From a virus: a stretch of 64,000 bases of DNA. The stretch is taken from the IMG/VR virus record IMGVR_UViG_3300046690_000339, positions 1-64,000 of that record; one strand, given 5' to 3'. Positions 4,136 through 52,011 of this stretch are shown here, piece after piece (the stretch's first letter is position 1; every line of letters begins with the position of its first letter). The notes under the pieces are model-generated. The model saw only the letters and a program-made list of their open reading frames with translations, made no database searches and was not told the origin of the DNA. The translations under genes were made by a program, and so were the position numbers.

Positions 4136-4388
4136 CGCTTCTCCATGCGTTTTCTCTGACTGCTTCCCTTAAAAGTTTTAGCTGTCCGATGAAGTGCTTG
4201 ATGTCGTCCATGCAGCCGACGTTAAACACAGCGTTGCCTGTCGGCAGAAAACAATACTGACGCCATGGCGGATACCAGCGGACTTCGCCCAACTTGAAAT
4301 CGCTGTGGTTATTGAGGCAGGCGAACACGGCTGTCTTTTCCTTGCGCTCAGTCTCCACGAAATGAATGAATTTGTAGCGGCTGGTCAT
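4128..4388 (-). CDS. conserved phage protein
   Basis: LGEVRWYPPWRQYCF...FNVGCMDDI motif. Confidence 0.6.
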   Translation of the reverse strand: MTSRYKFIHFVETERKEKTAVFACLNNHSDFKLGEVRWYPPWRQYCFLPTGNAVFNVGCMDDIKHFIGQLKLLREAVRENAWRSDA

Positions 4389-4641
4389 GGGTTCGTCCTT
4401 GCCATCATCGCTCGCAATTTGTCCGCGAAACTTAACCGCCGCTTGTGCTGCCCTGGCTCCAACTGATGGCCTTTTTTGGCTTTAGAGTGACGACGTTTTT
4501 TTTTCTGTTCGTTGTATGCGTAGCTCATCCTCGCTTCTTTCTAGCTGGGATTGTTCAGGCGGTCTTTCCGCCAAGTGACCGAGCGCCGATTCTGGAAACT
4601 CCCACAGGCCCAGCGAGCCACTGCAGGTAAACCTCCTTGCA

Positions 4642-28762: not shown

Positions 28763-29017
28763 TTAGGTGACTACATAGACATGACAGGTATCATTTGAGC
28801 CCGGCACAAAATTGCGCGTGACTACGATCCGCGCCATTTGAGTAAGATCCAGACGAGCAGGCGGCCGCGTAACAGTCACCCTGGCCATCTGTGTCGCTGT
28901 CACCGGGACATTTGCCCGAGTGACGGCAATACGCGCTAACTGAGTTGCATCAACCGGCGAGGATGGATCGGTCGTGACTGCGACCCGCGGCTGTTGCGTT
29001 GTTACAATGTTGGGCAT
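28763..29017 (-). CDS. small repeat protein
   Basis: Three to four copies of TQ(L/M)AR(I/V)xVTR. Confidence 0.55.
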   Translation of the reverse strand: MPNIVTTQQPRVAVTTDPSSPVDATQLARIAVTRANVPVTATQMARVTVTRPPARLDLTQMARIVVTRNFVPGSNDTCHVYVVT

Positions 29018-29019
29018 CT

Positions 29020-30078
29020 TTAGCTGGTCTTTTCTATGCCGATCTCAGCGCCATTTAATTCGGTTGCCGTAAAGGCCGCGCTAGTCGCCGGGCTCACCAT
29101 CATCAAATCCTGAAAGTAAGCATACGACCCGGCGCTCGGCGCCTGATCCGCGCCCGGTGTGTATTCGGTCGCGCCAATCTTGACGTTGGTCTTAAAGGTC
29201 GCCGCGCCCGCCGTAGATTTTTTCGCGTAGGGCATCATACCTGCAGCAACAACTTCCTCGGTCGTCGGAATCGTCGCATAAGTGAGCAGGATTTTATCGC
29301 CGACGTTCACCAGCTCCGCATAAGTTGTGTCATTATCAGGCGGTGCCTCATCGGTTGCTTGCCTACTGTCGGCCGCACCAGTCGCCACGCCATCATCAAC
29401 CGAGCCCGTACCAGTCGGAAGATCTTCGCGCACCCGGCAGTCACCTAAAAACGCCGCATCATTCGTCACCATATCGTCAAACTTCACTGTAGTCGCCGGC
29501 ACTTGATTAGCAAGATTGGTTATCATAGTGGCGCCGATCGTGATCTCCGTCACAGTACCTGCGCCGCCGTTTTTGGTATCCTGACCGGTCAGGCTCAAGA
29601 TCGACGCGCCATTGACCAGAATATCGATCGTTCCGGTGGAATCGTCGATCACTGCTTTCATTTCGACGTGATAGAAAACATTTACAGAGGCAACAAAGCT
29701 GCCGGTCCCGAGCGCTGTTCCCGCGCGCGTGACTCTTAACGTGCCGTCCGGGAACAATCGGACATCAATGTGAACCGTACCAGACTCGCGCAGTTCCAAA
29801 AGAATGAAAGCTTGGCTGGCCACCGGTAAAACATTCGTAGAGAAAGCGAACGATTGATAGATCGTCGATAGGGCGGCCGGCAGTGTCTTGACCGCCTTGG
29901 CTCCTGCGTTTGAGCTGTTCGTATTGTTCGGAATTAGTGCCAACAGCCCTTGCGTCGAGTTGCGCCCGCCCGCGCCGATCGTGATCGTAGACGTACCGGT
30001 GATCGACGTCGAAGTAAAATAATGCAGCACGGTCGTATCGACCTCAAAGCCCATTGCCATGCCGTTCGGGATCGTCAT
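29020..30078 (-). CDS. tail fibre / LamG-like virion protein
   Basis: FYHVEMK...VNG...FDD...FLGD...DEAPPD. Confidence 0.6.
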   Translation of the reverse strand: MTIPNGMAMGFEVDTTVLHYFTSTSITGTSTITIGAGGRNSTQGLLALIPNNTNSSNAGAKAVKTLPAALSTIYQSFAFSTNVLPVASQAFILLELRESGTVHIDVRLFPDGTLRVTRAGTALGTGSFVASVNVFYHVEMKAVIDDSTGTIDILVNGASILSLTGQDTKNGGAGTVTEITIGATMITNLANQVPATTVKFDDMVTNDAAFLGDCRVREDLPTGTGSVDDGVATGAADSRQATDEAPPDNDTTYAELVNVGDKILLTYATIPTTEEVVAAGMMPYAKKSTAGAATFKTNVKIGATEYTPGADQAPSAGSYAYFQDLMMVSPATSAAFTATELNGAEIGIEKTS

Positions 30079-30570
30079 TTACGTTCTCCTGCCAAAGATC
30101 GAAAAGCCGAAGACCGCGAGCGTCGGATCGGGCGAAGCTGGATTGTGTACGGTGATATAATCGGTCCCACCGATAAAGCTCGTATCGCCGGGAAAGCTGA
30201 AGCTCGGCACCGTTGCGGCAGCGCCGACATTCATAGTGCCAAACTCAACGCCATTTTTTTTAATCGAGAAAGTCGTCGAGCCCGTAGCAGCGAACAACGC
30301 CTTGCCCGCGCTACGATTCCCCGCTGATGGAATAGTTATATCCTCAGTCGGGACGCCGATCGCTATCACTGCGTTTGCTACCTGCGGCTCCAGCATCATG
30401 CCGCCGAGCACATAAATCCATTTATCGATCAGATCGCCGCCGCTCTGCATAAAGTCATCGACGGTCATCTTCTTGCTGCCGGATGCGCCTAGAGACGGTC
30501 GCACGACATAGACAAGATCGCCGGTGACTAGCGTCGTGATTGCGGTTCTTCCTGTTAATGGTCCAGCCAT
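30079..30570 (-). CDS. tail-associated protein
   Basis: Follows the central fibre gene; ATGSTTFSIKKNG...PDPTLA. Confidence 0.55.
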   Translation of the reverse strand: MAGPLTGRTAITTLVTGDLVYVVRPSLGASGSKKMTVDDFMQSGGDLIDKWIYVLGGMMLEPQVANAVIAIGVPTEDITIPSAGNRSAGKALFAATGSTTFSIKKNGVEFGTMNVGAAATVPSFSFPGDTSFIGGTDYITVHNPASPDPTLAVFGFSIFGRRT

Positions 30571-30573
30571 AAT

Positions 30574-31776
30574 CTATTGCTCAAATTGCATCGCTGCGCC
30601 GTCCTCAAACTCGATCACGTTGCCGTCTTGGAATAGCATCTCGAAGGCGCCGAAATCGGCGGCGCCCGACGGATTGATGATCGCGTGCCCAGGATAGCCG
30701 CGCCCGACTTCGGCGCTGATTTGGTAAATGTTGATATGTAAGTTGGTGCCCTTTAGCCCACCGAAATCGGTTGTCTGATCCGCATCGTTATACGTGAAGG
30801 CTTCGGTCGTCGAGGTCAGCGTGCGAAGCACTGCGCTTTCATCATCCTCCAAGATATCCAGTTCGTAACTTTCCGCCGTCTCGGCAAGAGGCGGATCGTA
30901 AAAGTCCCGACCGTTGCGTCCTTGTAAACGGCTGCGCCGCTTGAAAGTAATCTGGACGTCATCCCCGATATCGGCCAAGCCACGAATGTCCACTGGAGCC
31001 CATGGCTTCAACGATATGCCGGTGTCGGTAAACGTGGTCGCTTGCGCACCGGTTATGTCCATGCCAGACGATACGGCTTTGAATTGCCGCGGCTGGCTAA
31101 TCACGGCCAGCGCATCGTTGATGCGGAAGGTAATCGCCTGGCGTAAAAGAATCGCCCGCTCATTCAGCAAGTGCGTTGCCATCGCCCACTCGGTTCCCTT
31201 ATAGCCGCGCACCATGGGACCGTCCAAGCTCCAGCGCGTCGCCGATAGCTGGCTGACATTCTGAGACAGCACGATTTCATCGCCGATCAAGTAAGCCACT
31301 TCGCCTTTCAGCATCTCTTCCAATGACATGCTTTCCAGCGTGCCGCCGATCAATTCGATCTCAAGCGTGTTGGCATAATCCAGCGTATTGATTTCGCCGG
31401 CCGGCAGCACTTCCTTGGCGAAACCGATCGGCGACGCTTGATCAACCGTTTTCACCTGCTGAAAATCCGCGGTATCATCGTCACTTTGCCAGAGGCTCGC
31501 CGCGCCCCAGGTCGCCAACGCGCCGCGCATGGCGACATAAAAGCCCGCGCCATCATCGGCATCGCGCAGCGTCGGGATATCCATTAAGCGCAGGATCGTC
31601 GAGCCCGGAACATTGACCGTCTGGTTCGGGAAGTTCGCCCGGACCGCTGTGACCGGATCGCCGAGCGCCTGACTGAAATAAATGGCGGGATCTTCCCGGT
31701 AGATTTTTACCGTGATCAATCCCTCGGCGGCCAGCGTCGCCTCGGCAATTCTTGCGGTGATATCTCGGGTTGCCAT
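30574..31776 (-). CDS. GTA-like central tail/host-specificity protein, C-terminal half
   Basis: LMDIPTLRDADD..GFYVA, IGDEI, RGYKGTE, RRSR and PLAE..ESYELDI motifs. Confidence 0.8.
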   Translation of the reverse strand: MATRDITARIAEATLAAEGLITVKIYREDPAIYFSQALGDPVTAVRANFPNQTVNVPGSTILRLMDIPTLRDADDGAGFYVAMRGALATWGAASLWQSDDDTADFQQVKTVDQASPIGFAKEVLPAGEINTLDYANTLEIELIGGTLESMSLEEMLKGEVAYLIGDEIVLSQNVSQLSATRWSLDGPMVRGYKGTEWAMATHLLNERAILLRQAITFRINDALAVISQPRQFKAVSSGMDITGAQATTFTDTGISLKPWAPVDIRGLADIGDDVQITFKRRSRLQGRNGRDFYDPPLAETAESYELDILEDDESAVLRTLTSTTEAFTYNDADQTTDFGGLKGTNLHINIYQISAEVGRGYPGHAIINPSGAADFGAFEMLFQDGNVIEFEDGAAMQFEQ

Positions 31777-31783
31777 TTAAGCC
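31774..31783. repeat. 10-bp direct repeat copy 1 (GGCTTAAATG on the minus strand)
   Basis: catttaagcc, identical to 34123-34132. Confidence 0.75.
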
Positions 31784-34125
31784 ATTGCCCCTAACAGCGG
31801 CGCATCGTCATAACAACGCCGATTTCCCAGCTCACAATACTTCCGCTCCAAGTCCATCCCGATGCCGCGCCGGTTCATCTTGTCAGCGACTAGCGCCGTC
31901 GTCCCTGAACCGCTGAACGGGTCAAGAATGATCGCGCCGGGCTTCGATACCAGCTTGATGAGATACTCGATCAGGTCTTGAGGCTTGACGGTCGGATGAT
32001 TGTTGCCCTCGCCACGGTCGGCCTTGTCGGCCTTGGCGGTATAGTGAAATCTATTTGCTGAGTCCGCTTCCCCACGAACCGTATTGAATAGCGTGATGTT
32101 GAATGTGGCAGGCTCTACAGACCCATTTGATTTCCAGCGGCTTATTGTAATCGTCGTGATGTCGGTCCGCCTTTGGGTTGCCGCAATTTTCACAAGGCAA
32201 CCGTTCGGGAAAGGCTTTTCTTGCTGCAGCTCGGGCGAGACATTTTTTTCTAAACTCAGAATTGCTGTGATAAGCGACTCGCAAAGTTTTCTTAACTCTC
32301 TCGGCGTTGCGCTCATAAAATGGTGCGTTGAATCGCTTAATCCAAGTCGTCCTTGGCTGGCCAAAATTGCTGCATGACTTAGAGCAGAAGCGACGTGATC
32401 GCTTGACAGGAAAGAAAGGTCGTCGGCAGTATTCGCAAGGTCTTGATTCCATGCTATTATTATAGCCTTGGCGTTGCAAAAAAGCGACTCAATTTCATTC
32501 AAAGAAACAGTTTTAAAAAACCGTGACGCGCCGCCGGTGTCGCCATACCAGTCAATCGGGTCTGCCCCTCTACTCTCTGCACCATAAACATTGCCTTGAT
32601 GACCAGACGTTGTTTTGGCGCGACTAACTGTTTTACCGCTGGTCAATTCCCCGCTCTGCTCATCGAGCAGCGCCGCCGCTTCTTCGTCGAGGATTAGGTT
32701 GGCGGGCCAACGACCGACGTTGCTGTGATGATTCGCTTTTGTCGGATCGTAGTTATCGCCAAGGCCGGTTTGAGACGGTCGCCCATTCGCGCCGCATTTA
32801 TAATCGCCATCGAGGTTGATTCGACACCCGTCGATATTCAGCGCCCCGGTACCGTATCGCTGCACGTTTTCGGCTACAGTGCCGATGATCGGCTTGCGGG
32901 CGACGATGATCGGCTGGAACTTAGGCCGTAATCCCAGCCCTATTTCTTCCGGGTGTAAGCGCTGCGCCTCGTCGATAGCATCGCCTAGAACAGAAAGCTC
33001 TTGGATGGCGTTGATGCTCGTGACGACGGCGTTCAAATATCTTGCCGCAGGCAAGGCATTTAACTGTAACCCAGGCGCTTGCAACTCTGCCTTTATGATG
33101 ATGCTTGGAGTGAGCGCCGATAAGCATAACTTCAAGATTTTTAGGTCGATTGTCGGATTTGTTTTCGATTCCCTCTCGCTTGTGGTGGACGTGCTCATTT
33201 CGTCGAAGTGGGCGACCAAGGCGCTGCGCCATGACGACACGATGCTCAAGCTCGTATTTATCGCCGACACGCACAGCGACGTATCCGTCTTTGCGCGTAA
33301 ATCGTCCCAAATATTCTTTGGCTGCTCGACATCCCATCGAGCAAAAGCGAGCGCCGCGTCGTGCTCTGCTTGGCTTAACTTGAAATGTTGTTCCGCAATT
33401 CTCGCAGGTAATATCGACCATAGTTGCGCCTCCAATTTCAATAGGTTCGCAACTATTATACTCCGTTCCGTTGATTCTGGAAATGGTTTTTGTGCTACTA
33501 TGATATTTTCCCATGCGGGTTTAAGCGCCGTGCCCCAGCCTTGCCACTCTTTTGCGGCGTCGGTAGATGGTGCAGTGAGTTTTTCTATTCCATAACCAAA
33601 GATAGCAGTATTGTTTCGATTAGCTTCAGCTGCGGCCATCGTGACGCCGTTTCGTTTTGCCGCCTGAACATCTCCCCTAACTTTTTCTCCAACAATCTCC
33701 CGCTCCGCTCCTGCCGCCTTATCAATCGCCTTACTCACGTCCAACGATTTCGGAAATCCGCTGCCGTAGAGCCACATGATGCAATCACGAATCTCAAAGC
33801 CTGCGTCCTCGATTGCGCAGGTCAGCCGGTGAAACGTCCGCGTGCCGCCGAAGGCGAGCAGGTAAGCGCCGGGCTTGAGCACGCGGAGGGCTTCGAGCCA
33901 GTATTCAACTCCCGGCACAACGGCGTCCCATTTTTGGCCCATGAATCCGCCGCCAGTTGTTACACGCGAGCGACCTGCAGGAGATTTCAGATTCAACGAA
34001 GCCGCGCCGCTTCCGCCTTTTTTGTTTTGAGTAAGTCCGTAAGGCGGATCGGTGATGATGGCGTCCACCGAATTATCCTTCAGCGGTACTTGTCTTGCGT
34101 CGGCGTTGAGAATTTTCCAGCTCAT
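31777..34125 (-). CDS. N6/N4 DNA methyltransferase (beta class) with two in-frame insertions
   Basis: TDPPY, WLYGSGFPKS, GRWPAN, HPTVKP and LDPFSGSGTT. 782 aa; 427 aa without the inserts. Confidence 0.93.
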   Translation of the reverse strand: MSWKILNADARQVPLKDNSVDAIITDPPYGLTQNKKGGSGAASLNLKSPAGRSRVTTGGGFMGQKWDAVVPGVEYWLEALRVLKPGAYLLAFGGTRTFHRLTCAIEDAGFEIRDCIMWLYGSGFPKSLDVSKAIDKAAGAEREIVGEKVRGDVQAAKRNGVTMAAAEANRNNTAIFGYGIEKLTAPSTDAAKEWQGWGTALKPAWENIIVAQKPFPESTERSIIVANLLKLEAQLWSILPARIAEQHFKLSQAEHDAALAFARWDVEQPKNIWDDLRAKTDTSLCVSAINTSLSIVSSWRSALVAHFDEMSTSTTSERESKTNPTIDLKILKLCLSALTPSIIIKAELQAPGLQLNALPAARYLNAVVTSINAIQELSVLGDAIDEAQRLHPEEIGLGLRPKFQPIIVARKPIIGTVAENVQRYGTGALNIDGCRINLDGDYKCGANGRPSQTGLGDNYDPTKANHHSNVGRWPANLILDEEAAALLDEQSGELTSGKTVSRAKTTSGHQGNVYGAESRGADPIDWYGDTGGASRFFKTVSLNEIESLFCNAKAIIIAWNQDLANTADDLSFLSSDHVASALSHAAILASQGRLGLSDSTHHFMSATPRELRKLCESLITAILSLEKNVSPELQQEKPFPNGCLVKIAATQRRTDITTITISRWKSNGSVEPATFNITLFNTVRGEADSANRFHYTAKADKADRGEGNNHPTVKPQDLIEYLIKLVSKPGAIILDPFSGSGTTALVADKMNRRGIGMDLERKYCELGNRRCYDDAPLLGAMA
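32051..32452 (-). CDS. hidden HNH endonuclease 2 (-1 frame inside the methylase)
   Basis: CEYC...FCSKSC, PCENCG...HHDDYNKPLEIKWVCRACH...H; TATAAT 6 nt before the ATG. Confidence 0.85.
   Translation of the reverse strand: MESRPCEYCRRPFFPVKRSRRFCSKSCSNFGQPRTTWIKRFNAPFYERNAERVKKTLRVAYHSNSEFRKKCLARAAARKAFPERLPCENCGNPKADRHHDDYNKPLEIKWVCRACHIQHHAIQYGSWGSGLSK
32921..33421 (-). CDS. hidden HNH endonuclease 1 (-1 frame inside the methylase)
   Basis: CENCG...FCSMGC, DGY, EHRVVM...LGRPL...VHH...DNRPKNL...H..HH; GGAGG SD and TATAAT upstream. Confidence 0.88.
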   Translation of the reverse strand: MVDITCENCGTTFQVKPSRARRGARFCSMGCRAAKEYLGRFTRKDGYVAVRVGDKYELEHRVVMAQRLGRPLRRNEHVHHKREGIENKSDNRPKNLEVMLIGAHSKHHHKGRVASAWVTVKCLACGKIFERRRHEHQRHPRAFCSRRCYRRGAALTPGRNRAGITA

Positions 34126-34132
34126 TTAAGCC
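34123..34132. repeat. 10-bp direct repeat copy 2
   Basis: catttaagcc, identical to 31774-31783. Confidence 0.75.
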
Positions 34133-36429
34133 GCTACCCTCAAGTTCACCGGATCAGCCGCATCCAGCGCCACATATTTTCTAGGCAGCATCAGCACGCG
34201 CGGATCGCGTTCGAGCCAGTGCGTCGCGCTTAAAACCTCGGCAATCTGTTTCGCCTTGGTCGATGTCATCACAATAGCAAGATCTACCGTAACCACGTTT
34301 TTCGATTCGCTGTTTAATCGACCTGACGAAACAACGTGACCGGTTTGATAGCTCGCATCCTGATCTTTAAACCGTACGTGGACAATGACAGGGAGTTCGC
34401 TTTCCTGCGAGCGCGTGATTTCCTGCACCGGCGGAAGAGCGGCGTTCAAGTCGAGCCGCGCCGCACAATCCCCCTGCAGTATCGTCGCCACGGCATTATG
34501 TCCGCGCTTGCGGAAGTAAAGCATGTTGTCGCTTTCCGGCCCGTCATAGTAGGCATAGCGCTGGAGCGGTAGCGTGGCGTCGCGGCCTGTCATCTGCTGA
34601 TCGAGGGTGAAGCCGCGCACGCAATCGGTAAGCTCGGTGACGTTGAATTCGTTTTCTTCCATACCGCAAGCGATGCAGATATCACGCTGGATTTTCCACA
34701 GCGGACAGCACAGACCCTCGGCACCCGGTGCCCAGGCATGAACGGTGAAGTCATAAAATCCCCAAGTGCCAAAATTCCCGGTGTACCAAATTCCATTTCG
34801 GACAAAGAGCGTACCGTCGAGGCCCGAGTTGACATGAGGAGTCGCCGATTGACCAAGAAAAGTTATTTCGCCATCGTTCCAATCCCAAAAGAGCGCCGAG
34901 CCGAAAGTCTGTCCGGTATTGCCAAAAAGTCTTATTCGGGTATCGCTCTCGACGAAAAAATTTCGGACTTTATTCGTGCCAAGATCGTAACTTTGCACAA
35001 GCGACATATCTTCGGGGTCGAACTTATAAAGCATCGCGTGCGCGAGAATATTTCCGAATGCGTCAAAATTGACTCCGCGCAAGGCCCACAAAAAGTCATC
35101 GCCCATATTGATGCTGCTAAGACCGCCATGATCCGTCCAAAAGCTGTCGGCGATCTTACCGATCAATGCACCGCCATCCGCGTTGAATCGCTCGATCAGT
35201 GAAAATTTTCCTCCTGTCGGGACCCGACGCATCAAATAAAGATCGGTTCCCTTCTTCGCAAAGAAATCATAAGGCGGCTGCGGCGGCCCGATTGTTGTGA
35301 TAATTTTTCCTGCACGCACGAGCCAAGCTTTGCCGTCACTCGCGAAGAGCGCAGCCGGTTCGTCGCTGACTCCAGTCGCCATCACGCCGCCCAATTCGCT
35401 TGGGCTCGAATTGTCTGTAAAGACTGCCGGCGGTCGTTCTTCTTCGATGTATGATCCATCCGATAGCAGGCGAAACGCGCGAATGAAATACTCGCCTGCA
35501 TTGGGGCCGCTCGGAATGATGTCGGTATAGACTTGGCTCCCATGACCGACCATCATCAGAATTTCGCCGTTAGGATCGACATAGGACCAACTGCCGAAGC
35601 TACCGCTTGCGCCGCCCTCATCGGTCATCTGCCAGTAGCCTTTTTCCTGATAATTTTCATCGCCGTCCGTGTAGCACTCAAAAGAAAGATTCGGGATAGT
35701 CCCGTACTCCGTCGTCTCGAAATCTTGAAAGACGGCCAAGAATTGATTTCTATACGCCGTGGTATTACCGACGCCCTCGAAGGCTTCGATTAGCGCGGGC
35801 GGCAGCTGTTCTTCGTTGCCATCATAAAAAGTAACCGAGCCGGCGTTTCTGCCTTCGAGATTCTGCCCGGTGCCAATTAGGCTTTGCAGACTGGCATCCA
35901 TGCTGTGATCATAAATTAATTTTGGCCCGGCCCAGATTCGGATCACGCCACGGCAGTTCGACGCGCCATTTATCGCCACGGCAAAGTCGGCAAAGTACGT
36001 AAACGTTTCACCCGACGACCCACCTTTGCCCTTACCGCCGACGGTGTGCTTAAATGTGCGAATGCCACGACCGCCATGGCCGTCCGAGCCGATCCAGATC
36101 AAATTTCCTGCCATGCGATCGACGCCCCAGAATCGTTTGATCGGCGAGCCGAATGCGGCCGATTGAATGTGTGCGTCTTTCAGGCGCGGTCCGGTTACGC
36201 TTTGGTTTGCGCCTTGGAATATTGAAAACAGAGTTGAACTTATTGACCACGCCAGTTGCGCACTGGTGAGAATCGAGCTTACCGACCACGTTGCGGCGGC
36301 GGCAGTAGCGCCGGCCGCAACCTCGGCAGCAACCGCGCTCGCCGCCGCCACTCCGGTCGTCGCAGCTGCGCCGCCAGCGCCAATCTCGGCGGCGGAGCCG
36401 ACTGCCGCCATTATTGTAACAAAACTCAT
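34126..36429 (-). CDS. GTA-like central tail/host-specificity protein, N-terminal part
   Basis: GPRL...FG.PI...G..RMAGNLIW, RIWA, AYR, IPNLSFE, QESELP...YQ and LDAADPV. Confidence 0.85.
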   Translation of the reverse strand: MSFVTIMAAVGSAAEIGAGGAAATTGVAAASAVAAEVAAGATAAAATWSVSSILTSAQLAWSISSTLFSIFQGANQSVTGPRLKDAHIQSAAFGSPIKRFWGVDRMAGNLIWIGSDGHGGRGIRTFKHTVGGKGKGGSSGETFTYFADFAVAINGASNCRGVIRIWAGPKLIYDHSMDASLQSLIGTGQNLEGRNAGSVTFYDGNEEQLPPALIEAFEGVGNTTAYRNQFLAVFQDFETTEYGTIPNLSFECYTDGDENYQEKGYWQMTDEGGASGSFGSWSYVDPNGEILMMVGHGSQVYTDIIPSGPNAGEYFIRAFRLLSDGSYIEEERPPAVFTDNSSPSELGGVMATGVSDEPAALFASDGKAWLVRAGKIITTIGPPQPPYDFFAKKGTDLYLMRRVPTGGKFSLIERFNADGGALIGKIADSFWTDHGGLSSINMGDDFLWALRGVNFDAFGNILAHAMLYKFDPEDMSLVQSYDLGTNKVRNFFVESDTRIRLFGNTGQTFGSALFWDWNDGEITFLGQSATPHVNSGLDGTLFVRNGIWYTGNFGTWGFYDFTVHAWAPGAEGLCCPLWKIQRDICIACGMEENEFNVTELTDCVRGFTLDQQMTGRDATLPLQRYAYYDGPESDNMLYFRKRGHNAVATILQGDCAARLDLNAALPPVQEITRSQESELPVIVHVRFKDQDASYQTGHVVSSGRLNSESKNVVTVDLAIVMTSTKAKQIAEVLSATHWLERDPRVLMLPRKYVALDAADPVNLRVAA

Positions 36430-36995
36430 TATTTGCCCTCGGTGATCATTGCGGTGAAATCCTCGATAGCGCGTCGAAGCTCAAGATCGGCGGCCGTCGA
36501 GAGCAATCCAATCTCTTCATAGTTCTCGGCGATTAATTCATCTTCGATCTCGTCAATGTGAGATTCGTCGCCAAATTTAGTTAGATGGACGGTAAGCCAA
36601 AGCGTATCTTCGAGCGCCATGCCAACGCGCTTGGTTCCTGCTTCTGCAATAAAAACATCGCCCGCCTCATAAGCTATTTTGCCCGCCTCGGTAAAAGTTG
36701 CTCCCTTGCCTTTGAGCACAACTGTCATTGTCGCATGTCGATGGATCTTCCCGAACGTGACCGAGCCTTTAGGAATAACCACCTTTCGACCATAGACGCA
36801 GCATCTATACTCTTCATGGATCGGCGTGAAGTAATGCGTTAGGATCGCTTGGTCGGCGATATCTGTGAGTTGACCATCCTCAATCGCTTGCGCGATATTC
36901 TTTTCGCTCTCCAAAATAATCTGGCGCATCTCGATGCGCTCTCGCGAATTGATCGCAGGTCGAAAATTTTCAATGACTGGAAGATGCTTACTCAT
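36429..36995 (-). CDS. cupin-like phage protein
   Basis: HYF...Y.R...IPKG...GKIHRH...GTKR...EDT.W.TVH. Confidence 0.7.
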   Translation of the reverse strand: MSKHLPVIENFRPAINSRERIEMRQIILESEKNIAQAIEDGQLTDIADQAILTHYFTPIHEEYRCCVYGRKVVIPKGSVTFGKIHRHATMTVVLKGKGATFTEAGKIAYEAGDVFIAEAGTKRVGMALEDTLWLTVHLTKFGDESHIDEIEDELIAENYEEIGLLSTAADLELRRAIEDFTAMITEGK

Positions 36996-37416
36996 CTTCG
37001 AGTCCTTTATATCGATAGATTGCTACGATTCGGGTTTCTAGCATTGACTCGATCGGCGCTTCTTCGACATCCCGGTAATTCACCGCCTGAATCAGCGTAT
37101 TGCGAAACGTCAATATTCCAAGGTGCTGCGCATGATCGACCGAACGCATCCACGGAATATCACCAGGTAGGCGCTCATCTTTCGGCACGCGCAGAAACAA
37201 CCGATCAAGCGCGCCTTTCATCTTGATCGGGTCCGGCTGGCGCCCGTAGCCTTTGATGTCTGCCGAGCCGTCGTGCGGCAAGCATCCGCAGGTCAAGCCG
37301 ACGCCGAGTACTATGCCGGCGCAATCGACGCCGACAGATTTCAAACGACCCTGGTGTGCCCAAGGAGTTCCCTTCCAGGTCATTGCTTCGGCGACTATTT
37401 CATTGCGCGTCGGCAT
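36988..37416 (-). CDS. NlpC/P60 tail-tip peptidase
   Basis: W.GTPW.HQGR...GVDCAG...PGD...HLGI. Confidence 0.92.
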   Translation of the reverse strand: MPTRNEIVAEAMTWKGTPWAHQGRLKSVGVDCAGIVLGVGLTCGCLPHDGSADIKGYGRQPDPIKMKGALDRLFLRVPKDERLPGDIPWMRSVDHAQHLGILTFRNTLIQAVNYRDVEEAPIESMLETRIVAIYRYKGLEDE

Positions 37417-37894
37417 TGATCATCTTGCTTATCGTCTTAATCCAAACAGCATCAGGTCGACGCAGTAGCCGACGATGTTCTTCGCTGACCGGCGTTCCTT
37501 CCCAATTGAGGCCGACCGAGGTCAATGTCCTTCCATTCTTCCATTCCTGCAAACTTAAAAACGTCCCGCCATTAGGCACGTCGCCGACGCGGTGCCAATC
37601 ATCCGGCCCGACGTGATACTGCGCGCTCCAATTGGCTTTGCCGTTTGAAAGGTCTTTTCCATTGACGATCAAAGGGACATGGTCGGACATGCAGTATTCA
37701 ATGCTGTCCACATCGGGATGCCTGTGGTCACGCGGGAATCCGAGGTTAGGGCGGATCATAAAAAGCTCGGCCTGAAATTGGCCCAAGCGAAACAAGATTT
37801 GTGAAAGCACTGAGCCATAATCGTAAAACTCCAAAGCGCGCAAATCGCCCAGCGGTTGGGCAATAAATAGTGGTACAAAACTCTCAAATTTCAT
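37400..37894 (-). CDS. cupin-like protein
   Basis: HRHPDVDSIE...WH...GGTFLS.Q.W. Confidence 0.65.
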   Translation of the reverse strand: MKFESFVPLFIAQPLGDLRALEFYDYGSVLSQILFRLGQFQAELFMIRPNLGFPRDHRHPDVDSIEYCMSDHVPLIVNGKDLSNGKANWSAQYHVGPDDWHRVGDVPNGGTFLSLQEWKNGRTLTSVGLNWEGTPVSEEHRRLLRRPDAVWIKTISKMINADAQ

Positions 37895-40725
37895 TGCGGC
37901 CTATCCGGCGTAAGTAAGGCAACATCCGTTCCGGGCGTCTCATCCTCTGCCCTCCGGTTATAAATATTTCTAAACTTAAATTTACACATCGCCTTTGAAA
38001 GATCGCAGCCCGCGCTGGCGACATACTCATCGCCCAGCTCAATATCGAACGGCATGCGCTCGAACAATTCAAATTGCCCAGGCCCGGCCAGAATATTGCC
38101 GTCCACCGTCGCATCGGCGATCACGCTGCCAACCGTGATCTCGGTCTGATCGGTCCCGATGTTATAGAAAACAGCGACGACATTGTATTCGGTATCATTC
38201 CCGGTGGATCCCGCGACCGCCAGGCGCTGGCCCACAATAAAATTCGCCGATACATCGCCATCAAGCATAAACTTAAAAGCGCCTTGATTGACTGCGACGA
38301 CCGGATACTGAGCCAGGGTAAATTCCTTTATCTCCTGCGTTATGCCGACGTTCAAACCCGTCAGGAAAGTAAGCAACCCGTTGGTAAAAAATCCGCTTGC
38401 CAGAGCATTCGGCGCAGCAACCGTACCGCCTGCGCGGTCATCCGGTATCGTCTCGGCAACGGCGATCCTTGTCCGCCCAGATACCAGCGATGAAACCGTG
38501 ACGGTATATGTCGCATCGTTGGCAATCGATTCCGTCACGGCAAAGGTCGTACCTGGCAAAAAGACGCGGGTTAAGTCGCCGCCCTCAATCTCAAAATAGT
38601 TGCCGCTGACACTGGCAGCAACTATCGCGAATAAAGCAATCTGCGTATTGATGCCGATCCCGGTCGTCGGCGGTTCATAGCGCCCGCTGTCTTGAAAGAA
38701 TCTTCTATTGATCGCGCCGGTAACCGAGCCGAATACTTCCAGCGCGAGGATTGCCCGCCAGGTTACGCTGCCATCGGTTGTCGTCGCGCCGACTGCCAGA
38801 TTCCAAGCGGGCTCGGTCTGCGGCGCAGGATATATTGCCGAAGTTCCAGCTATCGTGCATTCAAAATGCCGACCGTTGTAAATATTCGGTTTGACCACCG
38901 AACCGATCGCCGCGTCGTTTGGCGGTCGCACCGTATAAGCAGTCTCGCTACGCCAAAAAGGCGGATCGATCCTCACCTTGCAGCCGAACCGCTGCTTCTT
39001 GTAATCATGCGCACCAGTACCATCGCCGACATCATCGCCCACGCGCGCGCGGCAGAGCTTGCTGATCAGGTCGCCGAAAGTCTGTTGCAGAAAATATTGC
39101 TTCCCGCGCGTCTCAGCTTCAAAGGTGCCGCGCTTAGATTTGATTTGCCCGATGCCGCCAGAGCTTGGCAGAAAATATTTGCCCATCGACAGGTCTTCAT
39201 AATTGACCAAAAAAAGCTCATCGCGCGCGTTGTCGAAGCGACCGATCTCGATATCTTCGTCAGTTAAAACCCCCTTGATCAAAAAGCCGAGTTGGTTCGC
39301 AATCGCTTTGTTAGCCATGATGCCGACGAGCTCGCTGTTGTCCACGGACAGATCGGCGCCGCCCTTGATTGACCGTGGCGCATAGCCGGCAGCGGCGCGA
39401 TAGGTCAAACCGCCAGCAAATTGCCTGACTGTGCTTTGGATGGAAATCGACCCGTTGATATTGTAAGCAATCACGACGACGAGCGTCTGTCCTGGTGGAA
39501 GCGGCACTGAACCGGTCGGCGGCAAGCCAGTACCGACACCGGGTATATCGACCGTGTCGCCATCGCTGCCATAATCGATCGTGCCTCCACCTCCTGGCGG
39601 CAGCGGATTCGGCGTGACTACTACGACTGGAGTCGGCAGATCCTCGCCGCCGAATTCAAGCGCTCCCGCGTCAGGAGAAGAACCGGTATAGGCAACCCCA
39701 TCAACGATCACGCCGAAATCGATCGCTGGAGATCCGAGCGTTAAATGGAAGTCGTCGCTACCGGGACTTAAAAAAAAAGGGTCGGTCATCAGATTGTGGT
39801 CTTCAATAGTGCCTGTTCCGCCATCCACGATCACATCCGTAGTGTTCTGGTAGAAAATATTGTTGCGGTAAGTAAGGTTCGATCCTTCAATCGAGATGCC
39901 ACCGACGTTTTGGACAATCGTATTGTTGTAGACTTTATTGTCGTTACGGCGAATCACAAACCCGAAATAGCAATCACGGACGATGTTGCCGTAAGCTATG
40001 TTGTTGTTTCCAGAAAATAAAATACCGGCTTCGTTAGCGGCAAACCCTTCGTCGTAAACCCTGCAACTTCTTACTACATAATTGTTTGCCTCAGCCGGGT
40101 TGCCGTTATCGTAGATGTGAACCCCATAGCCCACATTGGTATGGATATCACAATTATCGACTAGGCCGTCATTCCCGCCCAGATACAGACCGTGACAAAA
40201 CCCGATGGTTGGCCCCAAAGCTTTACCGTTATCGTGAATGTGGCAAGCTATATATTCATTATGATGCGTAAGCTGCGACTCCAGAACTCCCGAGCCTTGC
40301 GCATTCTTTAGCTCGCAGCCTCTTAACCTGATATGATGACTGGTGGTTGAAAGTGTCGGGTTATTTGGTCCGGTAATCTTCACGCACTCCAGCTCTGCAC
40401 CACTCGTCCCGTCTATAACGAGCCCGTTGATTTCTATGTAATGCTGCGATGCTCCGTTGACCTGTTGGAAATGCAAAACCCGATCGCCTGAAGAGGGCTG
40501 TAGCGTTACAGCTTCGCCGTTGTAGTTAGAAACTAAAGTGAAATCGCTCCAGCTTGTCCCCGAAGGGAGGCTGTCAAGGATGCTTTCGACATACACGCCC
40601 GTCCGGATGTACAACGTATCGCCACCGCTCAGCAATCCGATACCGGCAGCAATCGTCAGCTTTGGCTGAGCGAGGCTGCCTGGATTGCCATCGTTGCCCG
40701 TCTTAGCGACGTAATAAATAGCCAT
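37891..40725 (-). CDS. right-handed beta-helix domain fused to the C-terminal part of a DUF2163/BR0599 baseplate hub
   Basis: YYVAKTGND.NPGS...GDTLYIR.G.Y beta-helix, then LTYRAAAG...LSVDNSEL...CRARVGD...GCD...C...F.N..N. Confidence 0.85.
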   Translation of the reverse strand: MAIYYVAKTGNDGNPGSLAQPKLTIAAGIGLLSGGDTLYIRTGVYVESILDSLPSGTSWSDFTLVSNYNGEAVTLQPSSGDRVLHFQQVNGASQHYIEINGLVIDGTSGAELECVKITGPNNPTLSTTSHHIRLRGCELKNAQGSGVLESQLTHHNEYIACHIHDNGKALGPTIGFCHGLYLGGNDGLVDNCDIHTNVGYGVHIYDNGNPAEANNYVVRSCRVYDEGFAANEAGILFSGNNNIAYGNIVRDCYFGFVIRRNDNKVYNNTIVQNVGGISIEGSNLTYRNNIFYQNTTDVIVDGGTGTIEDHNLMTDPFFLSPGSDDFHLTLGSPAIDFGVIVDGVAYTGSSPDAGALEFGGEDLPTPVVVVTPNPLPPGGGGTIDYGSDGDTVDIPGVGTGLPPTGSVPLPPGQTLVVVIAYNINGSISIQSTVRQFAGGLTYRAAAGYAPRSIKGGADLSVDNSELVGIMANKAIANQLGFLIKGVLTDEDIEIGRFDNARDELFLVNYEDLSMGKYFLPSSGGIGQIKSKRGTFEAETRGKQYFLQQTFGDLISKLCRARVGDDVGDGTGAHDYKKQRFGCKVRIDPPFWRSETAYTVRPPNDAAIGSVVKPNIYNGRHFECTIAGTSAIYPAPQTEPAWNLAVGATTTDGSVTWRAILALEVFGSVTGAINRRFFQDSGRYEPPTTGIGINTQIALFAIVAASVSGNYFEIEGGDLTRVFLPGTTFAVTESIANDATYTVTVSSLVSGRTRIAVAETIPDDRAGGTVAAPNALASGFFTNGLLTFLTGLNVGITQEIKEFTLAQYPVVAVNQGAFKFMLDGDVSANFIVGQRLAVAGSTGNDTEYNVVAVFYNIGTDQTEITVGSVIADATVDGNILAGPGQFELFERMPFDIELGDEYVASAGCDLSKAMCKFKFRNIYNRRAEDETPGTDVALLTPDRPQ

Positions 40726-41087
40726 TAGAGACCTATCTCCAGATTGCGATTGAAGTTAGTAAACCCGATCACACGCCTTGCCTCGCCTTTTCCTTGGTAA
40801 AAATTAAAGCTCGTCGAGTCTTCATTGATCTGAAAAAAGTAGTCACTGACCTTGAGGATCGGAAATTCTCTAAAGTTCAATTCCGTCATGCCTCGCACAT
40901 TCATTATTTTGACGACATCGCCGTCGACGTAGCCGTGCGGCCATAGCGTTTGGATCAAACAAGGATCGCTGTTGTAAATTCTGAGAATCCGCGGCTGATG
41001 CTTGACCAGAATCAATTTGACACACATTGCTAAGGACGTACGCTCTTGCCTGACATGCCGCACCATCGCTTCACTGCTCGATTTCAT
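40725..41087 (-). CDS. N-terminal fragment of the DUF2163 hub with an FCCH-like insert
   Basis: MKS.S.AM..H...TSLAMC...IGFTNFNRNL, with HG..DGD.V.I..V.GMTELN inside. Confidence 0.7.
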   Translation of the reverse strand: MKSSSEAMVRHVRQERTSLAMCVKLILVKHQPRILRIYNSDPCLIQTLWPHGYVDGDVVKIMNVRGMTELNFREFPILKVSDYFFQINEDSTSFNFYQGKGEARRVIGFTNFNRNLEIGL

Positions 41088-42244: not shown

Positions 42245-45200
42245 CAGCGGTTCCTCTTGCCAGATTCCATGGCGGCGGCTAGTTGAGCGCTGGCCTGGCC
42301 GACCGATTGACGGTTTTGAAATTGCGGGTTGTTGAAAATCGCGACGTTGGCGGACGGCCCGTTGTTAATTCCGCGTGAGCCTCCCGGCAACATTAGCGAT
42401 GCTTGCGGAATTGTTCCCGCTTGAAAGGTCGTCGATGATGGCGCGTCCGTCCTGCCCGACGACCATTGGGGAATGGAACCGATATCGTTGGAATCGATCA
42501 GGCCGCCTGTGCTGAACTCGCGAATCATCCCGCCGAAATGAAATCGCGGCGTCACCGTGGCCTCGGCGCGGTTCAGCTTTTGGAGCTTGTCCGCACCGAT
42601 TGTCATCGCCGTTTTTTTGTTGATGACGAACTCGCCATCCTCGGCGATAATCATGCGCTCGCCGGGCTTTAAGTCCGTGCCCTTCACGCCTCCGTGCGAC
42701 ATTTGTCCGCCACTGTGGAATCGTGGGAGATTTTGCGATGAAGCAAGAGAAACGGAGCGAGTAAAAGTTGGCGAATGACCAATGATGCCGCCGCGGTGAT
42801 ATCCTAGCGCGAGCAGACCGCCGCCGACGGCTTGTGCCCCTGTATCGGCCGCCGCGCCGCCACTGCTAAAAAGAGAACCAAGAAGAGGAATGCTACTCGC
42901 CAGATTGCTTCCATTAGAACCAACGCTATTGGCAGCCCCAGCCGCTTCGATCGCCGTGATAGCGACAGCCTGCAATGCGGCTATGCTCGCTTCCGTCGCC
43001 GCGCCAAGCGTAGTGATTGTCGTTTCTGCAACACCGAGACCGGCCTGAATCCCGGTCATCGATTCCGTCGATACTGCCTGAATACTCGTCTGTGTAGTTA
43101 GCCCGGTAGTTTGTATCGCCGCCGACGCTTCGGTCGCGACGGTTTGAATTGCTATTATCGCCGGCTGAGTCTGGCTAGCTGCACCGGCAATCTGTCCGGC
43201 TGCACCTGGAATACCTACGCTCTGCCCTGCCGGTATTGCGCCGGGAATGGGCAGCTTGAGAAACCCGCCGAATAGATCGTTGGTCTGTTTCTTGATCCAC
43301 TCTTCAAACGGCTTCGTTATCAGTGCGTCGGTGATGGCCCGGTTGATGTTGCTGGCAAGCCTTTTCGCTACGTCCTTGATCTTGGCGCCGTCGGCCAGAT
43401 CGGTCAGCGCGTCAATAGCGGATCTGCCGATATCCTGAAATGCTTGAGCAAAATGCTCGGCGGCTTTGGCGTCTTCGAGCTGGGCTTTTACTACTTCAAT
43501 TTCTGGACTGAGAGGCTTGAAGCCTTCCGCCCTGAGACGTTTGAGAGCTTCGGTTAGCGCGTTGATGCTTTCGCTCGGCAGATCAATCGCACCGCCGAGG
43601 ATTTCGGCGTCCGCTCTGATATCTTCGAGATTCTTTTGCAGGTTCGAAAATATGTCGGCGACTTTGAGGTTTCGTAGTTGCTCAGCTAGTTGTTTCGCTT
43701 CTTCAACTGAGGATTTTAAACCGCCTGAAGCCATCTGTGCTAAATGACTTTGAACGACTTGCACGCGCGCACCGGAGAGATCGAAAGTCCGTCCTAACAA
43801 CGCCGCCTGGACGTTTGCGATTTCCAGTTCACGGTCGACATCCTCAAAGGGTTTGGCGAGTTGTTTTTGATCAAGCTGGGCGCTGAGCTTATTGACTAAG
43901 TCGTGCGCTTCGGGAGTTTTATCAGCGCCTCTATCAACCTTCAGTGCGTTTGCAAGTTGAGTTTTTAAGGATTCAATCTTCGCTGCGGATTCGTCGAATG
44001 AGTTGGCAAAAACTTTATTAACAGCATCGGCGGTGCGTTCGGCAGATTCAAAATCAATAAGAACCTGCTCCTTGATTGTCTTTAACTTTGAAGTATCGAG
44101 CTGCGGTTCAATTTCTAGCTTTGCGTTTATAGCTAAATTTTTGACTACTGGGCTGGTAAACTTATCGGCAATTATTTTATCAAGCGCGTCACTTGCCTTT
44201 TGTAATGCATCCGTGTTGATACCAGAGATATTTGTCGAAATGTCCCCAGGTTTATTTTTTATTTCGGCGAGATTTTGTTCGCTCTCTAAAGTATTCTTAA
44301 TCTGCGGAATCTCAGCTTCCGCAAGAGCCTTGTGTAATTCTCGTTGCTCTTTAGCAGCTTTGCGCGCAGCATCGCCCATATTGCCGAGCTTCGCGTTAGC
44401 GATTTCGTAAGACAGCGCAAGGTCATCGGCAGATGCTTTGCCTTCGACCATCGTGGCGATTTGTATTTTTAGAGCTTGATTTCCCTTGGTGAGTTGATCG
44501 GCGAATTGTGCTTGCTGAAGTTCAAGACTTACCTTTTTAAATTTTTCTAACTGTGCAACAAATTCCGCATTGGCCGTAGTGAGATCAATCAATCCGGCTT
44601 TGGTCACAAGCGCGGCGGCTGCGTTGGCGATCTGCGCTTCCTTGCTCGCCGTAAGCCCAAGCACCTGCGAGCGTAAACTTTCGATTGTCTCATCAAGAGA
44701 TTTTTTGAATTGGATTTGATTGTCGGTTTCTTGTGGACCGACACTAAGTTTGGCTATTTCACTGGGCGTGCCGAATGTCGCCTTGGACAAATCGATAGGT
44801 CTTGCACTGATTGGTGCGGGGAAATTTCGGAATGTCGTTGATTGCTTCGCGGCTTCAAGCTCCGCTTGCGGTGACGCTGGAACTTCTGATGCCGCCTTGT
44901 TCTGCGCAATCAGTGCCGCCACATCTTCGCGAGTAGGCCCGAACGCAGGTAATTTCTCTCGCAGCTTATCTATTTTATCAATAACAAGATCAACGGCCTT
45001 GCCGATTTTTACAAAAAGGTCGAAAACCTCTAAAATTCGGACAGCCGCAAGAGCTTCCAGACTTATCTTGGCTCTATCAAAGGCCGCCGTTACGCTGTTA
45101 ATCGCTGCGATCTGCTCACTAGTGACGAGCGGCTTTTCTGCTTGAATACCCTCTATTCCACCGCGTTTCTCGATCCCAGCAAATGCCGCCGCCAATTGTG

Positions 45201-49131: not shown

Positions 49132-50160
49132 TTACGAAGCGTTATCCAGTCCGACCTTGATGACTGCGTTCGGCCGCTTGTTGATCGGCAGAGGATTGCT
49201 CTGAGCCTCGAACTGGACACCCTTGTCGAAATCCATCAACTTCTGTTTGCTGTAGTAGGGCAGCCCGATCGTGTTGACGGTCTCGACGTAGTTGGCCGGC
49301 GCAAAATAGGTCTTCCACATCTCGGGAACACCAATCGGGAAAACGAAGGCTTCGTCGGCTTCGATATAATTCGTGCCGTTGACGTTGCCGCGGTACTCTT
49401 CCCATACGATGTTGCCGATGCGAACCGCGCCGTAGCGCAAGTCATCTTCGCGGAAGAAACGAGCGTCTTGCCAGTTGAGGTAATATTGCGCGACTTTCGC
49501 GTGACCGAGCAGGGCATCGATGAACTCTGATCCCGCAAATCCATGAATCGCCTGATAGGTGAAAGCGCCGAGAGCCGACTCGATCTTGCGGATGATCTGA
49601 CGACACTGTCCGACCACGTCCGTTCCAGCAGTGCTGAGCTCCATGTCATGAGTTTGCTGCGTGACATTGAGCTGGGTGAAAAGATCGTAGAGCGTGGTAA
49701 CGTTGCCGGACTTGTCGATCTGCAAAATCAGCCCCTTCAGCGCGCCGATCTTCATCCACTCGATCGTCACATCGAGCTTGTCTTTCATGCGCTGGAGTTC
49801 GCGGTTGACCTTGGCGTCGATCGCGTCGCGCTCCGTCTCCGAGCCAAAGGCGCGGATGCCCTGGACTTCGTCGGCCATGACGGCGCCTTGTTGGGGCAAA
49901 TGCGGGACGGCCAAGTTCCGCAGCACCCGCTTGTCATCGACAACGACTGATGCGGGCGCATTGCGCGCAACGGTCGGAACGAGCGATAACGAGCCGCTGA
50001 CCTCTTCGATATCAACACTCAAGGTGTCGATGCCCTGCTCCTCGAAAAGACCCATCTCGGAGAGGCGCATGGGTTTGTGCGGGAGTTTGTTGATGGTGTC
50101 GGTGAGCGACGTCAGGCTGTAGCCATCCGCCTTAAATACATCGAGCATATTACCGGGCAT
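49132..50160 (-). CDS. major capsid protein (lambda gpE family)
   Basis: SLT..IN.LP, VQGIRAFG, TIEW...GALKG, FAPA...ETVNT.G.PYY and QSNPL. Confidence 0.93.
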   Translation of the reverse strand: MPGNMLDVFKADGYSLTSLTDTINKLPHKPMRLSEMGLFEEQGIDTLSVDIEEVSGSLSLVPTVARNAPASVVVDDKRVLRNLAVPHLPQQGAVMADEVQGIRAFGSETERDAIDAKVNRELQRMKDKLDVTIEWMKIGALKGLILQIDKSGNVTTLYDLFTQLNVTQQTHDMELSTAGTDVVGQCRQIIRKIESALGAFTYQAIHGFAGSEFIDALLGHAKVAQYYLNWQDARFFREDDLRYGAVRIGNIVWEEYRGNVNGTNYIEADEAFVFPIGVPEMWKTYFAPANYVETVNTIGLPYYSKQKLMDFDKGVQFEAQSNPLPINKRPNAVIKVGLDNAS

Positions 50161-50207
50161 GGGTTTTTCTCCTTTGTTCGTTCAGCGCTTGGAGCCGCTG
50201 GTTTTTG

Positions 50208-50573
50208 TTAGTCGCGGACAATAATTCCGAGCGCCAAGAGATCCGCCCGTCCGGCAGTAATCGCTGTGCCGTCGCTGCTGCCCCAATCGAGCATTGCGGC
50301 CTTGACGACGCAGTCGCGGACAATCACCGCAGCCTTCTTATCGCCGCCGCTGGCGTCGCAGTCGTCAAAGAGAATTCCGGCAGCCGCTTGCGTGCCGTCG
50401 CTGGCGCCGTTGTCGTAAACCGCATATTTCCCGCCAGAAGTGATTTTGCCGAGTACCTTGCAGGCCGTGAGGTTCTGCCCGCTGACGACGGTCACTTCCT
50501 CGCGCGAGCGATCGTAATTCGCCTCGCTCAGAATAAATTCGCCGCTATGTTTGCCTTCAGTTTTCGCCGCCAT
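50208..50573 (-). CDS. head decoration protein (gpD-like)
   Basis: EFILSEA...SRE...VLGKIT...DGTQ.AAGIL...LGIIVR. Confidence 0.9.
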   Translation of the reverse strand: MAAKTEGKHSGEFILSEANYDRSREEVTVVSGQNLTACKVLGKITSGGKYAVYDNGASDGTQAAAGILFDDCDASGGDKKAAVIVRDCVVKAAMLDWGSSDGTAITAGRADLLALGIIVRD

Positions 50574-50600
50574 GTTTTGTCCTCCTGAGTTTTGGAACGT

Positions 50601-51704: not shown

Positions 51705-51723
51705 TTTTCACCTCGTAGAAACG

Positions 51724-51765
51724 AAAAAAGCCGCCCGACTCCCCGAAGGAAGTGGGCGGCTTTTT
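51724..51765. terminator. bidirectional intrinsic terminator
   Basis: A6-GCCGCCC...GGGCGGC-T5. Confidence 0.8.
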
Positions 51766-51813
51766 AGCGCCAAGCCGGCGGCGCGGTTATGAAATCAGTT
51801 GATCGTTCTTAAA

Positions 51814-52011
51814 TTAATCGCTCTCAGTCGTCAAGTCTGTTTTTCCGTGCCCCTCATAGAGCACTTTCACCGGTTCGCCGTTTTTCGCACCCAGGATGAC
51901 CTCGAAGTGGATCTTGGTGAGCGTGCGGTCGATCTCCAGCACCTTATCGCGGCGCGCAAGCTCGCGAATTATGACCTCGCTGATCCTTGTCGCTCGCGGT
52001 AGCATCAGCAC
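51814..52011 (-). CDS. small hypothetical protein upstream of the terminator
   Basis: 65-aa coupled ORF. Confidence 0.55.
   Translation of the reverse strand: MLMLPRATRISEVIIRELARRDKVLEIDRTLTKIHFEVILGAKNGEPVKVLYEGHGKTDLTTESD

Follow-up and report, generated by a model that had tools for sequence, protein, structure and literature searches.

The DNA analysed here (the window) is the first 64 kb of IMG/VR virus record IMGVR_UViG_3300046690_000339, a 79.9-kb record rated complete by CheckV. On its minus strand, three open reading frames (ORFs) follow one another with zero spacer bases: an N-terminal tail-tip gene (P0001, the N-part), an orphan DNA methylase gene (P0002) in which two HNH endonuclease genes are hidden, and a C-terminal tail-tip gene (P0003, the C-part). 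We consider it likely that the tail-tip protein was already encoded by two genes in the ancestry of this phage, and that the methylase was inserted later at the joint between them, in a microhomology-guided event that would have placed it under late co-expression with the tail genes. At both joints the stop codon TAA is followed directly by ATG with no base between, and this zero-gap arrangement reads as it did in a preliminary description of the locus made from the letters alone. That description was headed by the claim that the methylase splits one tail gene, which does not stand, as the methylase-free relatives found all have two genes, broken at the same residue. Its added remark that the split may be older than the insertion is borne out by the same relatives, every one of which already has two separate genes.

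A tail-tip protein encoded by two genes

The two outer ORFs match different stretches of the same proteins. Residues 610-763 of P0001 match PF13550 Phage-tail_3 (E 3.4e-20, above the curated cut-off, over profile positions 1-148 of 164), and residues 117-206 of P0003 match PF23666 Rcc01698_C (E 6e-16). On phrog_4271, which has 1309 positions, the best stretch of P0001 covers 8-209 and P0003 covers 943-1307, while on RcGTA g15 (PDB 6TBA/6TEH), P0001 matches residues 19-201 and 755-940, and P0003 matches residues 960-1295. Against gp86 of Microcystis phage Mwe-JY26, a single chain of 1163 residues, P0001 could be aligned to gp86 residue 775, six residues short of its own end, and residue 9 of P0003 aligns with gp86 residue 788, so that the halves meet within about one residue. 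The synteny of the tail-tip module with Mwe-JY26 and R9Y2 holds as well. The two ORFs had been expected to align end to end on a single homolog, and they are indeed colinear with both RcGTA g15 and Mwe-JY26 gp86; the accompanying statement that the gene transfer agent (GTA)-type protein is normally one polypeptide also agrees with the homologs, most of which are single chains. By homology, P0001 and P0003 are the two halves of a tail-tip protein of the megatron / GTA g15 / gpJ type. The N-part contains an N-terminal penetration/adhesin-like region, a peripheral region, and the greater part of a gp27-like central hub domain; the last two beta-strands of that hub lie in the C-part, followed by a linker and an FN3-like fibre-binding region. 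The megatron family is one of single polypeptides, whereas the window and every clade member found have two ORFs. Compared with L015, the closest relative among the loci (85% amino-acid identity), the N-part has a ratio of nonsynonymous to synonymous substitution rates (dN/dS) of 0.109 and the C-part one of 0.095; both halves are therefore working genes under purifying selection.

A search over 5.8 billion proteins returned 15 full-length homologs of the C-part (396-404 residues, 52-89% identity), all of which begin M-x-x-R at one alignment column, with M1 and R4 invariant; the closest homologs in Logan/ENA, P0006 and P0008, are 89% identical, and with P0007 the range is 86-89%. The DNA of relatives was drawn from IMG/VR and JGI metagenomes via alignment-based scans (an IMG/VR scan with the single protein P0003 as query gave no match). 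The comparison with methylase-free relatives that the preliminary description had called for could thus be made at seven distinct loci (L005, L006/L017, L007, L015, L016, L018, and L019), in all of which the N-part is followed by the C-part with no methylase at the joint, in a gene order otherwise the same as in the window. Every relative found, at 50-89% identity, is split at the identical residue. The N-part ends in two alanines before the stop in every relative (nearly always VAA), and the C-part starts M(A/T)TR in every one. The joints themselves take several forms: L005 and L016 read GCGGCATAATGGCAAC, in which TAATG gives a 1-nt overlap, L018 has TGATG, L007 has ATGA, L015 has TAAATG, and a spacer of 80 nt in L006/L017 or 204 nt in L019 lies between the two genes. 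The frame of the N-part relative to the C-part also varies among loci (0, -1, +1). Because relative frame and spacer vary in this way, a conserved frameshift or readthrough fusing the halves is excluded. An intact gene where the insert is absent, as would be expected of a gene in pieces, was found at none of these loci.

The split is rare among homologs. An exhaustive HMMER search found 7213 C-part homologs, and among the best 150 representatives, only two clusters at 50% identity or above begin at the break, the rest being fused proteins of ~1000-1400 residues or fragments. P0196, P0177, and other short homologs starting near the break were considered as further splits and look like 5'-truncated fragments. 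The split would be ancestral to a clade of uncultivated siphophages, and the methylase is not its cause.

The position of the break in the fold was approached through the fused homologs. In an alignment with 47 of them, the stop-start falls in a turn between two strands, that is, in a hairpin; the fused homologs read ...EPTDVVTVxx-xxATYxVRI... at the break, and the split clade has about four extra residues. An AlphaFold2 (AF2) model was made of L015:6317-8197, read through its TAA as Q and using the alignment with fused homologs (mean pLDDT, the predicted local distance difference test, 84.9). In the model, the break at residue 228 falls between strands 220-227 and 230-243; another strand covers 249-255, and a low-confidence linker lies near 271-280. 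Over 232 aligned residues, the model (residues 23-269) superposes on the central domain of RcGTA g15 as far as chain residue 984 (Z 22.8, root-mean-square deviation 2.3 A), and residues 23 to ~265 also superpose on the hubs of lambda gpJ, Mu gp44, and VgrG. In g15, the central domain comprises residues 745-984, and the fibre-binding domain, residues 985-1304, is held by a 20-residue linker (Bardy et al., PMC7296036). Given this superposition and the g15 domain borders, the C-part would supply approximately the last 40 residues (two strands) of the hub fold, and then the linker and the FN3-like module. The model places the break in a beta-hairpin turn inside a gp27/VgrG-like hub domain, and suggests that the two halves assemble non-covalently by strand complementation.

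Other inserts are found at the same joint in relatives. The 80-nt spacer (L006:8919-9000 and L017:6919-7000) consists of CTGAGT / ACTCAG repeats and folds as a long imperfect hairpin (-39.7 kcal/mol, z -2.3), which could be a miniature element or a regulatory hairpin. The 204-nt insert (L019:836-1039) holds a 69-residue ORF (840-1049) on the minus strand, opposite to the tail genes; its product, which matches nothing in Pfam or PHROG, contains a hydrophobic stretch and resembles a small membrane protein. Since relatives hold these other inserts there, the joint looks like an insertion hot spot.

The methylase cassette at the joint

The same 10-mer, GGCTTAAATG, had been noted at both methylase junctions, and it is present at each joint and nowhere else in the 64-kb window. 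Its two copies compare with an expectation of 0.15, and two were reached in 1 of 100 shuffles. The copies are spaced by 2349 nt, which is the length of the methylase ORF, and the inserted unit is exactly ATG...TAA: the left copy joins GGCTTAA of the N-part to the ATG of the methylase, and the right copy joins GGCTTAA of the methylase end to the ATG of the C-part. Similarity between the two sites reaches 17 nt imperfectly, with 14/17 bases matching. The coding strand of the window has just four gene joints at which stop and start read TAAATG, and the two besides the methylase joints have unrelated upstream bases. The match of GGCT beyond TAAATG has a chance probability of ~0.4-1%, and in a cross-locus control over 34 methylase loci, 10 nt or more were shared between start region and stop region in 1/1122 pairs. 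The repeat is thus unlikely to have arisen by chance alone. The methylase start and a site close to the methylase end share a 13-nt near-repeat, which by estimate is at chance level.

L015 provides an empty site for comparison. Its joint reads GGTGGCGGCTTAAATGGCAACCCGAGA, and the empty site, GCGGCTTAAATGGCAACC, carries one copy of the 10-mer. The window flanks abut on the L015 joint base for base, with nothing missing and nothing extra, and removal of the cassette from the window leaves TAA-ATG, the same as in L015.

The methylase itself matches PF01555 (E 6.8e-31) and phrog_67 (E 3e-63), and is 40% identical to the methylase of the Cylindrospermopsis phage Cr-LKS3. Both of its ends resemble native ones: the start, MSWKILNADAR..., matches the native N-termini of homologs, and the end, ...APLLGAMA before the stop, resembles the family endings ...PLFGGAA and ...GSAA. 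Native C-termini in the family are ...GGAA, ...GSAA, or ...DVA, often overlapping the next start. The closest methylases are P0039 and P0066, and the nearest full-length methylase in a large protein database has 50% identity. A search of three relatives' records, of which one is 100% complete (L015 and L017 are not among the three), found no methylase homolog. The family is described as patchily distributed and frequently transferred horizontally among phages (Gosselin et al. 2023, PMC9957025). By its distribution, the methylase of the window is an acquired orphan gene; with seven distinct loci that lack it and whose joints differ, a single insertion on the branch leading to the window is more parsimonious than repeated loss. 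Methylase and HNH domains are the only ones found in the cassette, which has no transposase domain. Its ends lack terminal inverted repeats, a consensus scan revealed no promoter or terminator at its borders, and Rfam gave no intron or ribozyme match in 29000-38000 at E up to 1. Elsewhere in the methylase family, L027:336-1503 and L047:3845-6573 are loci with short border repeats, and the methylase homolog of L047 consists of two overlapping ORFs.

Within the methylase, two stop-free insertions occupy approximately residues 216-405 and 540-685, the first shared with the Cr-LKS3 methylase and the second absent there. These insertions encode P0004 and P0005 in the -1 frame, while the methylase ORF, of 782 residues, stays open across both. 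The presence of two HNH genes within the methylase, as the preliminary description had it, is confirmed by profile matches for each. P0004 matches phrog_20891 HNH (E 1.5e-16); it is 55% identical to an intact alternative-frame ORF within the Cr-LKS3 methylase, and 48.5% identical (E 2e-30) to DNA within the methylase gene gp65 of Mycobacterium phage ShiLan. A hidden-HNH element in ShiLan has been described by Arsenault, Gosselin and Gogarten (Arsenault et al. 2025, PMC11855218), and P0004 is, by its sequence, a homolog of that element. P0005 has the motif CxxC...HH...CxxCH and matches phrog_2340 endonuclease (E 8.8e-10). Its relatives in the phage collection are free-standing endonucleases only, which cover its C-terminal quarter to third, and no counterpart hidden in a methylase was found in that collection. 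P0005 may be a separate lineage that adopted a ShiLan-like design. Of the three-level nest proposed earlier (a tail gene holding a methylase holding two HNH genes), the inner two levels stand, and the outer one does not, as the methylase sits between two pre-existing genes and not inside one.

Probable route of the cassette into the joint

In the history that we consider likely, two coupled genes would have encoded the tail-tip protein in this phage lineage, with the halves joining by strand complementation. A complete orphan methylase ORF would later have entered the stop-start joint exactly, in the window's lineage only, with the two out-of-frame homing-type HNH genes either already in it at entry or received afterwards. 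Such an insertion would have left TAA-ATG coupling on both sides together with the 10-bp direct repeat. Entry was most likely by illegitimate, microhomology-guided recombination rather than transposition. Coupled to the N-part stop in the late tail operon, the methylase would be co-made with the tail proteins and would presumably modify progeny DNA before packaging, against host restriction. This arrangement would come at a cost, since the two tail halves, otherwise coupled 1:1, are now separated by an ORF of 2.35 kb.

The nature of the repeat bears on the route of entry. Since Ala-stop is the native ending of this methylase family, the seven bases on the right (GGCTTAA) are possibly the cassette's own, and if so, the repeat would be microhomology and not an enzymatic duplication; we rank microhomology-guided insertion ahead of a true target-site duplication. 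The preliminary description had read the repeat as a target-site duplication, of which the 10-bp flanking repeat and its single copy at the L015 empty site remain, whereas a true duplication is not established, given the Ala-stop endings of the family and the lack of a transposase or inverted repeats. That the cassette is, or rides on, an element making a genuine ~10-bp staggered-cut duplication, with a preference for stop-start joints and coupling rebuilt on both sides, seems to us unlikely, though it deserves some weight. The exact repeat with one copy at the empty site and the insertion length that equals the ORF exactly would both fit, as would the in-register repeats at both ORF borders in other methylase-family loci (L027 ATGACCCA, L047 GCATGAC), where 5/34 loci share at least 7 nt in register vs 2.8% of cross-locus pairs, an enrichment that lacks control for within-genome joint motifs. 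However, neither a transposase or integrase nor terminal inverted repeats accompany the cassette, and up to 7/10 of the repeat bases may belong to it. HNH homing does not create duplications. A transposon was rejected as a candidate for want of inverted repeats and a transposase. The border repeats in the methylase family hint at a general joint-to-joint route. A broader version, in which the methylase and HNH cassette belongs to a class of ORF-sized mobile elements specific to stop-start joints, duplicating ~10 bp and with the tail-tip hairpin-turn joint as a preferred cargo slot, is quite improbable in our view; were it true, the ~10-bp duplication would rebuild the translational coupling of the operon on both sides of the cassette. 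The 10-mer identity could also be a coincidence, followed by selection for TAAATG coupling and for the Shine-Dalgarno-like AGGG upstream of each start. Stop, start, and ribosome-binding site are needed at both joints, the upstream 11 nt are only partly alike, and Ala-stop endings are common in both protein families, all of which would favour this explanation, but the low probability of the GGCT match, the unrelated bases upstream of the other two TAAATG joints, and the single cross-locus pair reaching 10 nt make it rather unlikely.

The remaining explanations concern the split itself. That the methylase insertion broke a previously intact tail gene would be in keeping with the single chains of most homologs and with a break inside a domain, as random insertion would give, but it is scarcely credible when methylase-free relatives down to 50% identity all carry two genes at the identical residue, with varied joints and frames, and when excision of the cassette yields the very TAA-ATG of L015. 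If, instead, the methylase were ancestral at the joint and lost from the relatives by deletion between direct repeats, recombination between the 10-bp copies would give the L015 sequence exactly. Yet all seven distinct loci lack it, including deep branches at 52-62% identity, the joints TAATG, TGATG, and ATGA cannot all stem from one deletion, and no methylase turned up in the three searched records; we hold such losses to be very unlikely. Finally, the halves could be rejoined by recoding, RNA splicing, or protein trans-splicing, with the methylase region being intron- or intein-like, an idea to which the mid-domain break and the in-frame joints of the window might lend themselves. It is exceedingly unlikely, since no Rfam intron or ribozyme appears in the region, the ORFs meet so closely on gp86 that there is no room for split-intein halves, and the relatives differ in frame, have spacers of 80-204 nt, and use both TAA and TGA as stops. 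Two specific forms of rejoining were rejected: a split intein, as there are no extra residues at the joint relative to fused homologs that would house the intein halves, and a programmed frameshift or readthrough, on account of the differing frames and spacers.

Several observations weigh against our account of an ancestral split followed by a microhomology-guided insertion. L015, the closest empty-site relative, is still diverged (synonymous divergence, dS, ~0.9-1.3), so that on the tree as sampled the insertion cannot be placed recently, and its intermediate stages are missing from the sample. Close copies of the methylase are lacking elsewhere (best 50%), and neither the donor context nor the origin of the right-hand GGCTTAA can be read. 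An exact repeat of 10 bp exceeds the typical length of chance microhomology. Strand complementation is drawn from homology and from a single-chain model of a read-through sequence, and the late expression and anti-restriction role of the methylase are ones that we infer.

Locus layout, known systems, and significance

The features of the locus are collected in Table 1. Nearly all genes of the window are held on its minus strand. An AGGGG run 12 nt upstream of the ATG of the C-part may be its ribosome-binding site.

Table 1. Features of the tail-tip and methylase locus (positions in the 64-kb window)
Feature	Position	Strand	Remarks
N-part tail-tip gene (P0001, 767 aa)	34126-36429	minus	C-terminal end ...LDAADPVNLRVAA before the stop (...LRVAA)
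Methylase (P0002, 782 aa), orphan beta-class N6/N4 DNA methyltransferase	31777-34125	minus	start codon to stop codon, no flanking non-coding base
C-part tail-tip gene (P0003, 400 aa)	30574-31776	minus	starts MATRDITARI
Direct repeat GGCTTAAATG, left copy	34123-34132	minus	last Ala codon and TAA of N-part, ATG of methylase
Direct repeat GGCTTAAATG, right copy	31774-31783	minus	last Ala codon and TAA of methylase, ATG of C-part
Hidden HNH endonuclease 1 (P0004, ShiLan-type)	32921-33421, longest ORF to 33514	minus	-1 frame, within methylase insert 1
Hidden HNH endonuclease 2 (P0005)	32051-32452, longest ORF to 32479	minus	-1 frame, within methylase insert 2

Upstream of the N-part lie an ORF of tape-measure size, a hub that bears Gp84_N and BR0599 domains (PF09931 and PF09356), a peptidase whose NlpC/P60 match is weak (E 0.0014, below the Pfam cut-off), and a small fibre-like protein, a series that corresponds to the usual GTA-like tail-tip order. 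The protein between peptidase and N-part (188 residues, 36429-36995, minus strand) matches short tail fibre / adhesin PHROGs (E 2e-23) and, weakly, Cupin_2, and its position is kept in all relatives. The hub protein (944 residues, 37891-41087, minus strand) has an N-terminal right-handed beta-helix (PF13229) preceding its hub domains, which occupy residues 438-565 (PF09931) and 882-934 (PF09356), and a 120-residue ORF lies directly upstream of it. Base composition also varies along the window: AT skew is strongly negative (-0.20 to -0.25) at 4001-6000, 43001-45000, and 50001-52000, compared with -0.14 over the methylase and mostly ~-0.1 to 0 in other tail genes.

The domain order found here, N-terminal adhesin-like, peripheral, gp27-like central hub, and FN3-like fibre-binding, is the same as in the RcGTA g15 megatron (Rcc01698; PDB 6TBA/6TEH), the roseophage R4C megatron (8GTC), and lambda gpJ / T5 pb3. 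The gene neighbourhood is also that of megatron systems, with tape measure, distal tail, hub, and NlpC/P60 peptidase preceding the megatron. Megatron, gpJ, and pb3 are single chains, however, whereas the small clade of the window has two genes, with the break ~40 residues before the end of the central domain. Genes in pieces through homing-endonuclease insertion are known from Aeromonas phage Aeh1 (nrdA-mobE-nrdA) and from T4 genes 39/60 with mobA. The likeness lies in an essential protein encoded by two ORFs, with a mobile gene between them and halves that presumably assemble non-covalently. In those cases the insert is thought to have caused the split and is a free-standing endonuclease, whereas here the split is present without the insert in all relatives found, and the insert is a methylase.

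The actinophage DNA methylases that carry a ShiLan-type hidden HNH (PMC9957025, PMC11855218) belong to the same family and, as here, have an in-frame stop-free insertion with a -1 frame HNH. The window differs from them in belonging to a non-actinophage lineage, in having a second, unrelated hidden HNH in the gene, and in carrying the methylase in the tail operon instead of the early/replication module. Like a phage moron, the methylase is an accessory gene carried by one genome and missing from this joint in relatives, a joint that different inserts have used repeatedly. Unlike morons, the cassette is without non-coding DNA, promoter, or terminator of its own; it consists of one ORF and nothing else, flanked by a 10-bp repeat, with stop-start coupling rebuilt. 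The flanking direct repeat and its single copy at the empty site are also features of a transposon with a target-site duplication, from which the cassette departs in having no transposase and no terminal inverted repeats.

The mechanism by which accessory genes such as orphan methylases are moved is still argued. The window and L015 form a clean natural pair of filled and empty sites, in which a phage's gain of an orphan methylase can be followed at the joints base by base. This locus extends the published ShiLan hidden-HNH design beyond actinophages, and to two different HNHs in one gene. On the side of the tail, a megatron / gpJ-type protein is found in two pieces, broken within a conserved hub fold and yet kept by purifying selection. 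The distal fibre-binding module may thus be built as a plug-in, which would be relevant to tail assembly and to host-range engineering in laboratory phages.

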